A stretch of DNA of 64,000 nucleotides from Escherichia coli (GCF_003334785.1 NZ_QOWV01000002.1), one strand, 5' to 3'. Positions 3,868 through 11,118 are shown, numbered from the stretch's first letter. The notes: generated by a model not told the origin, from the sequence alone. A program made the numbers and translations.

Positions 3868-4719
3868 TTAAGTGAACTGTGTACGACTATCGCCAAAATA
3901 CTCTAAACATAACTGCCTGAATTTTGCCCGCCATTCATCGATATTAAAATCATAGCGTTCCTGAAATGCAGTCGTTTCACTGGACATTATCCAGGCATAA
4001 TTATGTAACAGGGTTAATGCCTGAAGCGGTTTTCTCTGCGCAAAATAAGTATCAACACACATCTGCATCAAGGGGTAATTATTATTTTCCTTTGTTCCTC
4101 CAAAGCTAAGATCTAATCCTTGTTCTTTAATGCACTGAATCACAGGATCATCCTGGAAATTCGGGACATCTGCGGCCTGTGACAGCAAATGAATGACTTT
4201 ATTGTCAGGAACACCAAATGCCCAATTGCCAAGATAAGCATTAAGCGCAGCCTGTGCTGCAGCTTCTGTTTTTTTACATCGGCGATACTGGATTGCCAGT
4301 GCTAACCAATATTCGCTGACTTCAGGCAATTGTTCTGTTGCTCGCTGTAACAGTGGCAGTGCGTCATCAAGCCTTCCCGTTGAAAGACATTTCCGAGCAA
4401 CACGGAAGAGATTTGCTGCAAAGTCTTGATCTTCGATGCTGATGCCATTTTCATGGGGATCATCATCATTCACTTCCAGCCATTCTTCGAACTTCTTAAT
4501 GCTGGAAAAGGCAGGTACGATTCGCCATTCGTCATGGTACGTTTCGCACACTATAGGTAGTTTATGCTCCTGACCAATAGGCCAGTACAAACCGAAACAG
4601 TCTCCGTTACCATATGCTGCATCTGTAAGTACGGTAAATCCGTTCGGAGGAAAAGGCCCCGGGCAAATTCCATCAATGCCAGGTGAAATATCACTACTGC
4701 GAGGAATAAGTTTCATCAT
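3868..4719 (-). CDS. yfbP: Uncharacterized protein YfbP
   Basis: 283-aa ORF (MMKLIPRSSDISPG...); recalled as yfbP; no recognised catalytic motif. Confidence 0.75.
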   Translation of the reverse strand: MMKLIPRSSDISPGIDGICPGPFPPNGFTVLTDAAYGNGDCFGLYWPIGQEHKLPIVCETYHDEWRIVPAFSSIKKFEEWLEVNDDDPHENGISIEDQDFAANLFRVARKCLSTGRLDDALPLLQRATEQLPEVSEYWLALAIQYRRCKKTEAAAQAALNAYLGNWAFGVPDNKVIHLLSQAADVPNFQDDPVIQCIKEQGLDLSFGGTKENNNYPLMQMCVDTYFAQRKPLQALTLLHNYAWIMSSETTAFQERYDFNIDEWRAKFRQLCLEYFGDSRTQFT

Positions 4720-4774
4720 GTTCCTTCACATAAAAATTTATGTAAACATCCGCTTATCTGTTTATATAAATGTT

Positions 4775-5251
4775 TTAATCCCACCAACAAGTAACCGGAT
4801 GCATACCCACAGGGACTTCAACCCATCCATGCTCCGTATCTTCTGACCATCCTTCCCAGCACTCATCAGGGGCAATTTCTTCTACAAACCAGCTCTGAAC
4901 TTCTTCTGGTGAAGCAGTGGTGATAACTAAAATACTTTCACTAAAGGGCCAGTCTGGGTCATCGAACATCGTAATTTCTACCAAAACATCACTAACATTG
5001 TTACGCTCACGTATTTTCAGAAAATGGTGATAGATAGCTTGCGGAGATTGTTCTGGAATCACATTGCAACATATTGAACCATGGATATTATTGTCAATAA
5101 AAAAATCCTCAAGAGATAACAATGGACGAGGAGTATCAGGATTATTAACATCACCATTGATATTAACAAGTTGGGTAATGCGTTCTAAAGGTGTCATAAT
5201 TATTCCCTGAAATAATATATTCATCAAACGAATGACATTGTTTGAATTCAT
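4775..5251 (-). CDS. yfbO: Uncharacterized protein YfbO (start uncertain; possibly at 5197)
   Basis: 158-aa track ORF; internal Met (MTPLERITQ...) would give about 140 aa; AT-rich coding sequence. Confidence 0.65.
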   Translation of the reverse strand: MNSNNVIRLMNILFQGIIMTPLERITQLVNINGDVNNPDTPRPLLSLEDFFIDNNIHGSICCNVIPEQSPQAIYHHFLKIRERNNVSDVLVEITMFDDPDWPFSESILVITTASPEEVQSWFVEEIAPDECWEGWSEDTEHGWVEVPVGMHPVTCWWD

Positions 5252-5405
5252 TAGCAGATAAATAGTGACAATTCCATACGTATTATTAGTTTCAAGAGCA
5301 TCATAACATGAATGTTAAGCAGGAAAACGTGAGATATTCAGTCAGGCCGGGTCGTTATCCAGACGTTGTTATATTTAATATCATAAATATTTAAAGGGGT
5401 TTGAC

Positions 5406-6122
5406 ATGGAATGGTTAAGTGAAATTCGTAAACTTCGGAAGAACGTACCTGTCGGTATCCAGGTTGCCAGACGTTTGTTAGAGAGGACTGGCGGTGATGT
5501 TGATGAAGCCATCAAGTTGTTTCATATTGACCAAATCAATATATTGACGGCAAAAGCAGACGTCACTCATCAGGAAGCAGAGAATGTTTTGTTGGCTACA
5601 AACTATGATATTGCAGAAGCTCTTCGGCGTATTGATGAACAACGCTATACACTGACGGAATTGATTTTGCGTAAAAATAAGGATGCCGGAGATGCCTTAA
5701 ACAATATAGCATTGGCGATTGAATATGAGTGGGATCTCAAGCGTAAGTTTTGGTTTGGTTTTGCAGATATCCAATTATTACCGCCAGTTTTACAAACATT
5801 TATGCTGGTTTATGAATGGCATGAATATGTTGGTTGGGAAGGAATGGAGTGTGGGATATTTTTTGAAAGTGATCATACTCACCAGCAATTGCAAGCTTTG
5901 GGGTTATTAGAACTCGCCCAAAAAATGGTTACTGCAAGAATCCGATATGATGAGCTAAAAGACAAGGCCGAAAATTTTCACGAGATTACAGAGGATGACA
6001 TATTCAAAATGCTTATAATACATTGTGACCAACTTGCAAGAGAGGTTGATTCTATATTACTGCAATTTGTGAAGGACAATATTGATGTTTTCCCGTGTCG
6101 CCATAACAGACACGAGTTATAA
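5406..6122 (+). CDS. yfbN: Uncharacterized protein YfbN with N-terminal tandem EF-Ts-N/UBA-like motifs
   Basis: 238-aa ORF; residues about 5-40 (IRKLRKNVPVGIQVARRLLERTGGDVDEAIKLF) and about 50-75 (QEAENVLLATNYDIAEALRRI) resemble the EF-Ts N-terminal UBA-like fold pattern. Confidence 0.75.
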   Translation: MEWLSEIRKLRKNVPVGIQVARRLLERTGGDVDEAIKLFHIDQINILTAKADVTHQEAENVLLATNYDIAEALRRIDEQRYTLTELILRKNKDAGDALNNIALAIEYEWDLKRKFWFGFADIQLLPPVLQTFMLVYEWHEYVGWEGMECGIFFESDHTHQQLQALGLLELAQKMVTARIRYDELKDKAENFHEITEDDIFKMLIIHCDQLAREVDSILLQFVKDNIDVFPCRHNRHEL

Positions 6123-9837: not shown

Positions 9838-9859
9838 TGACTGTTTAGCAAACTATGTT

Positions 9860-9890
9860 CGACCAGTCAGCATATTTGCTGACTGGTCGA
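9860..9890. terminator. Perfect 13-bp palindromic hairpin between convergent yfbK and elaD (bidirectional terminator candidate)
   Basis: cgaccagtcagca-tattt-tgctgactggtcg, flanked by A/T-rich sequence on both sides. Confidence 0.55.
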
Positions 9891-9907
9891 ATTAATTAAC
9901 AATGATG

Positions 9908-11118
9908 TTAACTCACTCTTTTGCCGGATGCTCTATTTTTGGGTTGTGAGTGTTTTATTTCTAAGTTTCTATAATAATGATTGATATTTGCATCGCCATA
10001 TTTATCTAAATAACAATTTCTGTTTGCCAGTCGATGTTGAAAATCAATTTCGTACTGCTCTTCTGCTGAATATTTTTTAAATCTGTCAGCATAGTTTTTT
10101 AATAATGTATAGGGGGCGCTGTCAGAATTGCTTTCCCTTTGTTCAATCACTTCCTGGGCTGCCATGCACACAAATGCACCGCAACTTTGGCTTAAGTATT
10201 GCTGAAGATCGGCATGTAAAAATATTATCTCTGGTTCATTTAAATGAACTTTTATATTATTATTCGACATTTCTCCCATGAGTTCAGAATTAAAACTATT
10301 AATGACACGCTTAAGTGAATTTTCTTTATCATAGCCTAGTGCACGCAATGAGTTGAATATGACGCATTTTATTTGTAGTTTATTATTTTTTTATTTACTA
10401 TTTTCTGTAGCGAAACTAATATCCAGTGTCCGCCAGTATTTATGGGGAATAACTGGACTTCATTCGGCCATGATGGATCGCTCTTAATATTTTCATTGAG
10501 AGCGTCTTCCAGGTGAGTTCTGGTGGAGTAGGGGACGTAGAGACCAGTAGGATAATTGACTTGAGTATTTTTTGCATTAGCGGCGATCTTCTGAAGATAG
10601 CAAGCTATTTCATCTGTGGTTAATTGACGATTTTTATCCCAGAAGTTTGTACCATCACTCAGTTCATTATTCTCATCATTTAAAAGCACCTTTGAAAGCG
10701 ACTGTTTTTCAGATATAAGAGGAATTTCATCACCGATAATTGTCATTAATTTCGAAGGGGAGAATAGTTTTTTGAACAGGAGATCATCTGAATCATGTGA
10801 TTTGAGGGGGGAGTTGGTTGCGATATGTGCCAGATTATATAATTTTAAACAAGCATTTTTGATAAGTCGGATAATCGATAGGGTCTCATTTGTTGGGGTT
10901 CTAACAATATGGTAAAGAATATCTTCAGCTTCTTTCCCAAATTTATCATAACCTAACGCAATATTATGCAGTAACTCAATGCTTTCTTCATCTCCGGATA
11001 ACGCTGTTTTTTTTAAAGACTGCAGTAATTCCTCGGTCACAGTAAATTTTTCTGCAAATGTCTGACTGAGTTGCGTTTGAGATAATTGACAATAATTGCT
11101 GACAACTGTAACCATCAT
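9908..11118 (-). pseudogene. elaD: elaD (deubiquitinase-like protease) disrupted by a 1-bp deletion in a homopolymer
   Basis: Two same-strand ORFs (10369..11118, 249 aa; 9908..10348, 146 aa) in different frames; adding one A to the A7 run (plus-strand T run 10386..10392) fuses them into a 403-codon ORF. Confidence 0.75.

Follow-up and report, generated by a model that had tools for sequence, protein, structure and literature searches.

Between the nuo and men operons of Escherichia coli lies a block of seven genes, yfbP to elaD, which we examined in a 64,000-nt stretch of DNA (GCF_003334785.1 NZ_QOWV01000002.1; the whole 64-kb stretch is hereafter the window), where it occupies positions 3868-11118. 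The window is E. coli of a K-12-like kind and near-identical to K-12 MG1655: positions 832-15831 differ from the reverse complement of MG1655 2,378,000-2,393,000 by two substitutions and one single-base deletion, all three within elaD, and CFS3292 is 99.97% identical to the window across the full 64 kb. Annotation of CFS3292 and MG1655 gives exactly the genes that an earlier note on this DNA had listed, and its description of the products as mostly poorly characterised is borne out. After nuoN (2327-3784, + strand) come yfbP (3868-4716, -), yfbO (4775-5197, -) and yfbN (5406-6122, +), then an unannotated gene relic with frameshifts and stops (6120-6376, -), yfbM (6395-6898, -), yfbL (7001-7972, -), the divergent yfbK (8110-9837, +) and an elaD pseudogene (9908-11118, -), followed by rbn (11306-12223, -), elaA, elaB and menF. 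We refer to yfbP, yfbO, yfbN and the relic as module A, to yfbM as module B, to yfbL and yfbK as module C and to elaD as module D.

The block is clearly distinguishable from its neighbourhood in base composition and codon usage, as had been judged by eye. Its guanine-plus-cytosine (GC) content is 41.6%, against 52.2% for the remainder of the window, and is the lowest among all 7,251-nt segments of the 64 kb; non-overlapping segments of this size average 51.8% (standard deviation 1.8), with a minimum of 48.2%. Gene by gene, GC falls into three tiers: 34-36% in elaD, 39-43.5% in yfbP, yfbO and yfbN (43.5, 40.2 and 39.1%, respectively), and 45-47% in yfbM, yfbL and yfbK (45.6, 45.1 and 47.2%); the 44 other genes of the window have a mean of 52.4% (standard deviation 3.4). 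GC at third codon positions (GC3) gives z-scores from -1.4 for yfbK down to -4.3 for the C-terminal part of elaD, and the leave-one-out codon likelihood against the neighbourhood and the rare-codon fraction are displaced likewise. The genes singled out in the earlier note, yfbO, yfbN and elaD, are indeed the most extreme; yfbK is mildly atypical (z -1.5). The AT-rich block is compositionally foreign-looking. H-NS binding, for which the earlier note had proposed a check, has been published for yfbN, which is H-NS-bound in two chromatin immunoprecipitation (ChIP) data sets, lies within an IslandViewer island and is induced upon SlyA overexpression, being counter-silenced by SlyA (PMC5797941). 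The low GC may stem not from a single import but from DNA that is foreign or evolves fast, is weakly expressed, is bound by H-NS and is under relaxed selection.

Presence and absence within the species divide the block further. When 5,426 complete E. coli genomes (RefSeq), a set rich in K-12 laboratory derivatives, were searched with the whole block, only 930 carried at least 80% of it, and discrete structural types were evident. In searches module by module, the genes yfbP-yfbO-yfbN (yfbPON) were found in 948 genomes, nearly all at 99% identity or more, a share (17.5%) that overstates their natural frequency because so many K-12 derivatives are in the set; only K-12-like E. coli keep module A as a whole (3833-6393). 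At the other extreme, yfbM is core in E. coli (5,356 genomes, 98.7%). Intact yfbL and yfbK were present together in 2,512 genomes (46%), and genomes without the intact pair keep a yfbL remnant of about 87% identity and have no yfbK. elaD was found in 4,187 genomes (77%) at 93-100% identity. The structural types comprise the full block, the block without yfbPON, the block without both yfbPON and elaD, the O157 type, in which yfbK is deleted and yfbL internally deleted, and, in one strain, a deleted or replaced block with insertion sequence (IS) elements at the site. IS2, IS3, IS1A, IS903B or ISKpn26 also occurs in or near yfbO-yfbN (spacer at about 5198-5405) in many other E. coli genomes, and a study of DARS1 transposition reported an insertion in the yfbN-yfbO spacer (PMC5010248).

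The modules have junctions of their own, and mapping defined two separate indel segments. The yfbP-yfbO-yfbN indel segment measures 2,561 bp (3833-6393), in place of which yfbPON-less E. coli have a 17-bp spacer; the identical 17-bp junction in three such genomes, a B2-type strain and O157 among them, points to one event. The elaD indel segment measures 1,492 bp (9811-11302) and is represented by 144 bp in a B2-type elaD-less genome. These 144 bp are 90% identical to the spacer of a cryptic Escherichia clade that is also without elaD, so the elaD-less arrangement is common to this B2-type genome and the outgroup. The block has two indel segments, together with independent decay of yfbL and of yfbK, instead of the single pair of ends that one unit would have. 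A 24-nt imperfect inverted repeat (9798-9821 and 11322-11345, 79% complementary) brackets the elaD segment, its arms falling within the 3' ends of yfbK and rbn, respectively; chance could account for it.

Two strong hairpins had been taken as the limits of the block. Both fold far below shuffled sequences, as claimed, but neither bounds an islet, since the left one belongs to nuo whether or not yfbPON is present and the right one sits within the elaD segment. The left hairpin, at 3801-3836 on the + strand (-22.1 kcal/mol, z -4.7 against shuffles), is the intrinsic terminator of the nuo operon, with its core stem at 3808-3827 and T5 at 3828-3832; it lies in the left flank, outside the block, and is kept adjoining yfbM in genomes without yfbPON. 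The right one is a 16-bp perfect inverted repeat at 9857-9892, where yfbK and elaD converge (-29.1 kcal/mol; z -8.2 on the + strand and -7.3 on the - strand) and has a U-tract on neither strand. A consensus terminator scan called neither of the two. A third hairpin followed by T5 (11264-11291, +; -14.6 kcal/mol, z -4.2) lies between the elaD start and the rbn stop, likewise inside module D. We found no tRNA in window positions 1-14000, no flanking direct repeats of the block, no integrase or mobility gene in its annotation, and no RNA family at E <= 0.1 in positions 3000-13500; promoter-like sites numbered 24 against 21.7 in shuffles, which is no excess. The block thus has the atypical composition and codon usage of a genomic island and its sporadic distribution, the modules ranging from 17.5% to 98.7% in E. 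coli, but not the combination of a tRNA site, an integrase or transposase and direct repeats.

We also compared NuoN-anchored loci of other species, together with loci found through homologues of YfbN, YfbO and YfbP. The gap between nuoN and rbn holds cheV only in Citrobacter (two species), Pseudescherichia and Enterobacter cloacae, and only a 487-bp spacer in Pseudocitrobacter; none of the seven block genes lies between nuoN and rbn at these loci, and the block is not universally conserved. Salmonella has a 35%-identical yfbM-like remnant, yfbK and cheV. E. fergusonii has yfbN (71% identity), a 191-amino-acid (aa) open reading frame (ORF), yfbM, yfbK and cheV, and the cryptic Escherichia clade has a 409-aa ORF, yfbO, yfbN (87%), the relic, yfbM, yfbL and a remnant of yfbK produced by internal deletion. 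Superficieibacter carries a 328-aa ORF, yfbN (49%), yfbP (62%), a 177-aa ORF, yfbL, yfbK and cheV, and one further relative carries yfbN (46%), a 173-aa ORF, an 85-aa ORF, yfbL, yfbK and cheV. In the four Escherichia-group and Superficieibacter-type loci measured, the GC of the gap is 39.7-48.4% against 56-58% for nuo. Module C is shared with Salmonella and/or Superficieibacter, and over half of E. coli genomes have it deleted or eroded; elaD occupies the slot that holds cheV in other genera. Taken together, these loci mark the nuoN-rbn gap as an old variable slot.

Some observations on these loci stand apart. The Salmonella locus was taken from CP148755.1, a 500-kb record filed as a Salmonella Infantis plasmid; it carries nuoL-nuoN, yfbK, cheV (seemingly split into two frames), rbn, elaA and elaB, which shows it to be a misfiled piece of chromosome. 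The rule that YfbN homologues always lie 3' of nuoN holds in five enterobacterial contexts and fails for the most distant homologue (39% identity, on an 8.2-kb Logan contig of DRR532630), which stands at the end of an array of 12 or more small co-directional ORFs. Nearly all ORFs of that array are without a family match, and there are no attC-like repeats between them.

Ratios of nonsynonymous to synonymous divergence (dN/dS, by the Nei-Gojobori method) were 0.33 for yfbO, 0.21-0.25 for yfbN, 0.16-0.24 for yfbL, 0.14-0.27 for yfbK and 0.53 for elaD, against 0.00-0.11 for nuoM, nuoN, rbn, elaA and elaB; yfbM gave 0.04-0.08. These values indicate that the block genes are mostly functional and under relaxed or diversifying selection, and that yfbM is tightly constrained. 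In comparison with the cryptic clade, dS is 0.11-0.13 for nuoM and nuoN and 0.65-0.92 for rbn, elaA, elaB and menF, a jump across the block which implies that the variable locus coincides with a recombination breakpoint. Against the B2-type strain, rbn (dS 0.16) and elaB (dS 0.09) are ordinary, and elaA (12288-12749) has a dS of 0.94 and 87% amino-acid identity; its two deeply divergent E. coli alleles suggest an old recombination import limited to elaA.

We read the locus between the nuo terminator and rbn as a mosaic of at least four modules that have been inherited, lost and degraded independently, and put the probability of this reading at about 0.8. It would be a long-lived variable locus in which modules are gained, are lost and decay one by one. 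Three points count against this account: a few representative genomes underlie the inferred order of gains and losses, the yfbPON genes of K-12-like strains were either retained or regained by recombination, and the frequency of yfbPON is inflated by the make-up of the genome set.

The alternative that survives best, although we consider it improbable, is that the region is ancestral to the Enterobacteriaceae, became AT-rich through relaxed selection and mutational bias without any horizontal transfer, and differs between lineages by deletions only. The occurrence of yfbN, yfbL, yfbK and yfbM at the same locus in Salmonella, Escherichia, Superficieibacter and one further relative speaks for it, as do the raised dN/dS and the widespread decay seen in the gene relic, the yfbL remnant, the internally deleted yfbK and the elaD frameshift. 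Deletion alone, however, sits poorly with the unrelated ORFs (328, 409, 191, 177 and 173 aa) in equivalent slots of different lineages, with elaD and cheV sharing one slot in different taxa, and with an elaD-less junction that is common to the outgroup. Away from this locus, the nearest relatives of YfbO and YfbP are moreover found in distant taxa (Woeseiaceae, Janthinobacterium and Bacteroidota), patchily distributed and at 37-62% identity, and genes under purifying selection (dN/dS 0.14-0.33) still have a GC of only 39-47%.

Less probable again is the reading of the earlier note, a single old horizontally acquired islet bounded by the two hairpins, which is borne out in part only. The whole 7.25 kb is AT-rich and atypical in codon usage, Citrobacter, Enterobacter and Pseudescherichia lack the block, and yfbN is both H-NS-bound and flagged by IslandViewer, all of which would fit such an islet. 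A single islet is contradicted by junctions specific to modules and does not account for four independent patterns of presence and absence, for two separately mapped indel segments (3833-6393 and 9811-11302), for three GC tiers (34-36, 39-43.5 and 45-47%), or for a phyletic depth that differs between modules, with different genera carrying different subsets of the genes at the locus. Its supposed ends fail as well, the left hairpin being that of nuo and the right one internal, with no tRNA, integrase or direct repeat. As for its age, "old" holds in so far as yfbK, yfbL, yfbM and yfbN are found at the locus in several genera, and does not hold for elaD, whose absence at the junction is common to a B2-type E. 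coli genome and the cryptic clade.

The products of modules B and C are largely as the earlier note had described them. YfbM is the expected DUF protein, matching DUF1877 in Pfam (E about 1e-35 to 3e-35). YfbL is annotated by RefSeq as an M28 metallopeptidase; it gives weak matches to NCBIfam aminopeptidases (LapA-like, 1.7e-13), its orthologues match Pfam Peptidase_M28, and it has an N-terminal hydrophobic segment predicted to be a membrane anchor or signal. YfbK is a von Willebrand factor A (vWA) lipoprotein with a lipobox (LSGC, Cys19) and an intact metal-ion-dependent adhesion site (MIDAS; D222-x-S224-x-S226, T290 and D320), and its orthologues show the domains vWF_A, VWA and YfbK_C. YfbL and YfbK may act in the cell envelope.

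The ubiquitin-like protease of the earlier note stands as a family assignment and falls as an activity in this window. The two ORFs into which a frameshift splits elaD (10369-11118 and 9908-10348) both match the NCBIfam equivalog NF008812 (8.6e-94, 314 bits, and 3.3e-33, 115 bits), in keeping with the ElaD/SseL deubiquitinases of clan CE, and there are three changes from K-12 ElaD. The frameshift lies in a homopolymer of A7 instead of A8 (T7 on the + strand, 10386-10392), so that the product runs for 244 residues as K-12 ElaD and then ends in IINYK-stop. Unlike the known enzymes, the window gene thereby parts its N-terminal portion from Cys313, which is encoded only in the downstream out-of-frame ORF, and no single polypeptide carries the family domain with its catalytic cysteine. 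No type III secretion system able to deliver ElaD is known to work in K-12-like strains. ElaD-family proteins are ubiquitin-specific CE-clan proteases for which Cys313 is essential, C313S being inactive (PMC1847702), and elaD often carries a premature stop (88 of 353 sequences; PMC12575377). If the frameshift is real, the elaD product is inactive here, since Cys313 is removed. The same allele in CFS3292 is marked "frameshifted" by RefSeq. A second frameshift lies in yfaV, a major facilitator superfamily transporter gene (about 33670-34958), where a 1-base deletion at 34448 (CC to C) relative to CFS3292 splits it into ORFs 33631-34602 and 34470-34958; with two frameshifts in one 64-kb window, assembly errors may be involved. 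Elsewhere, in arnB, CFS3292 has a 9-bp in-frame tandem duplication, AATGGCGCG, that is absent from the window (at 27474).

Module A encodes acidic proteins (isoelectric point, pI, 4.1-5.1). YfbP (pI 4.8) consists of a conserved N-terminal domain of about 90 aa with a GNGDxFGLYWP...HDEW motif and of TPR repeats (Pfam TPR_16, TPR_14 and TPR_19). Its family, aligned from Leminorella, Superficieibacter, Janthinobacterium and Bacteroidota, is scattered over Proteobacteria and Bacteroidota. A SUKH or YfbO-like domain was considered for the N-terminus and rejected, hhalign being negative and a PDB profile search returning TPR matches only; among 26 YfbP relatives scanned with Pfam, one gave a marginal SMI1_KNR4 match (0.036). 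YfbO is a 140-aa protein of family PF27222 with a pI of 4.1 and a net charge of -21. Its structure model is confident and matched no solved fold, and its neighbours in the AlphaFold database are mostly unnamed, the named ones including DUF4253, DUF1963 and SMI1/KNR4 proteins. We looked at six contexts of YfbO homologues: one has the order LHH nuclease toxin, SUKH, SUKH, YfbO, a second is set among DUF1963 genes, a third is the present locus, and the remaining three stand alone or next to ParE pairs.

The family of YfbN is tiny, with 19 clusters in 5.8 billion proteins. Its AlphaFold model (predicted local distance difference test, pLDDT, 92.4) consists of tandem UBA-like domains at about residues 1-80 followed by an all-helical C-terminal domain, and comparison of models finds both the three-helix UBA fold and similarity to the fold of DMP19. 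We are confident in this predicted fold of two UBA-like domains and a DMP19-like domain, which is a new assignment. Matches of the N-terminus at the sequence level are sub-threshold (UBA_4, independent E-value [i-E] 0.0032; NAC, 0.0016; PDB profile, E 0.13), and the C-terminus has no Pfam or PDB-sequence match to DMP19, so that YfbN is not placed in that sequence family. Compared with DMP19 itself, the DNA mimic of Neisseria (PDB 3wur; PMC3384305, PMC5722371), YfbN shows no detectable sequence relationship and would carry two extra N-terminal UBA-like domains.

The spacer between yfbN and yfbM, which carries no annotation in MG1655, holds the relic of an eighth gene. Positions 6120-6376 correspond to the C-terminal 89 or so codons of a gene for a 191-aa protein, of which E. 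fergusonii has an intact copy (10712-11287 of its locus), as judged by tblastn (E 2e-20 over three frames) and blastn (269 nt at 75% identity). The protein encoded by that intact copy is weakly SUKH-1-like (Pfam SMI1_KNR4, i-E 0.0013). The same spot has also been reported as a non-canonical sigma-32 ChIP site (PMC3738151).

Within the mosaic, the likeliest mechanism for module A, although in itself a doubtful one, is a role in orphan immunity or as toxin decoys. Its acidic cytoplasmic products would neutralise toxic proteins as binders or decoys, much as orphan immunity proteins of polymorphic-toxin systems do, and YfbN may be a DMP19-like DNA mimic. A fuller version, to which we give slightly less credence, has yfbPON with the decayed SUKH-like gene, and perhaps yfbM, as a toxin-less orphan immunity cluster at a fixed hot spot, directed against nuclease or other toxins of competitors or against retron-type toxins, with the DNA mimic YfbN held or targeted by its UBA-like domains. 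Like the orphan immunity clusters described by Zhang et al. 2012 (PMC3482391), module A encodes small, acidic proteins of the cytoplasm that evolve fast and vary between strains. One homologue of YfbO stands downstream of an LHH toxin and two SUKH genes, YfbP resembles an immunity domain with TPR repeats, to which immunity domains are often fused (PMC3482391), and a SUKH-like ORF stands at the E. fergusonii locus. The predicted YfbN fold, the YfbO context among DUF1963 genes and the named AlphaFold-database neighbours of YfbO count in its favour as well. In addition, yfbN was listed in an overexpression screen as blocking the retron toxin RcaT (bioRxiv 10.1101/2020.06.22.160242).

Several findings weigh against this role. 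No toxin gene was found in or near the block, whose gene orientations are mixed rather than co-directional as in such clusters, and neutralisation is putative. In Pfam, no named Imm or SUKH family was matched above threshold by YfbP, YfbO or YfbN, and hhalign was negative; the links to SUKH, those of the E. fergusonii ORF (i-E 0.0013) and of one YfbP relative in 26 (0.036), are sub-threshold. Of the six YfbO contexts, only one shows a canonical toxin-immunity array and a second is suggestive, three being isolated or having toxin-antitoxin neighbours. The main text of the polymorphic-toxin survey mentions neither YfbM/DUF1877 nor DMP19. Deletion of yfbO or yfbL gives a complementable resistance to phage N4 in K-12 (bioRxiv 10.1101/2025.09.29.679331), a phenotype that marks these genes as host factors and is no pointer to immunity. 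It is the lack of a nearby toxin gene, of family membership and of telling contexts, most of them being neutral, that keeps our estimate for an immunity role low. YfbM homologues on plasmids, sought for toxin contexts, led to nothing but misfiled pieces of chromosome and a single Bacteroidota plasmid, which was uninformative.

The UBA-like domains of YfbN and the deubiquitinase family of ElaD might instead be combined into a host-directed module in which YfbN binds ubiquitin and cooperates with ElaD; we regard this as very unlikely, because yfbN (17.5%) and elaD (77%) do not co-occur, and because the cryptic clade, Superficieibacter and E. fergusonii have yfbN without elaD. Bacterial EF-Ts shows the UBA fold too, in its N-terminal domain (matches to 1efu and 1aip), the UBA sequence matches are sub-threshold, no signal for secretion was detected, and the elaD of this window is broken. 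An anti-phage defence island, which the variable, AT-rich and strain-specific nature of the locus, the N4 phenotype of yfbO and yfbL mutants and the appearance of yfbN in a retron-toxin screen might bring to mind, is just as hard to credit, as PADLOC, searched for known defence systems, matched none of the seven proteins, PHROGs, searched for a phage origin, gave only weak matches, to families of vWA proteins and peptidases whose function is unknown, and loss of yfbO or yfbL confers resistance to N4 rather than sensitivity, so that these genes help the phage rather than block it.

The mosaic is thus an ordinary, well-known kind of variable patch in a well-studied genome, partly ancient and partly decaying. 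It resembles the H-NS-bound islets of the flexible genome of E. coli in being AT-rich, codon-atypical, strain-variable and placed between core operons, in its IS insertions and pseudogenes, and in the binding of yfbN by H-NS with counter-silencing by SlyA (PMC5797941). It differs from them in having no tRNA, integrase or repeat boundary, and the presence of yfbK, yfbL, yfbM and yfbN at the locus across several genera means that its age and conservation exceed those of a typical strain-specific islet. The variability of elaD, like the H-NS and island status of yfbN, has already been published, and the interest of the present analysis rests on the YfbN fold assignment, the gene relic and the testable immunity hypothesis.

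For annotation, the seven genes should not be treated as a single functional unit. For four K-12 genes of unknown function, the predicted fold of YfbN, the N4 phenotypes of yfbO and yfbL and the RcaT-blocker result for yfbN lead to concrete experiments.

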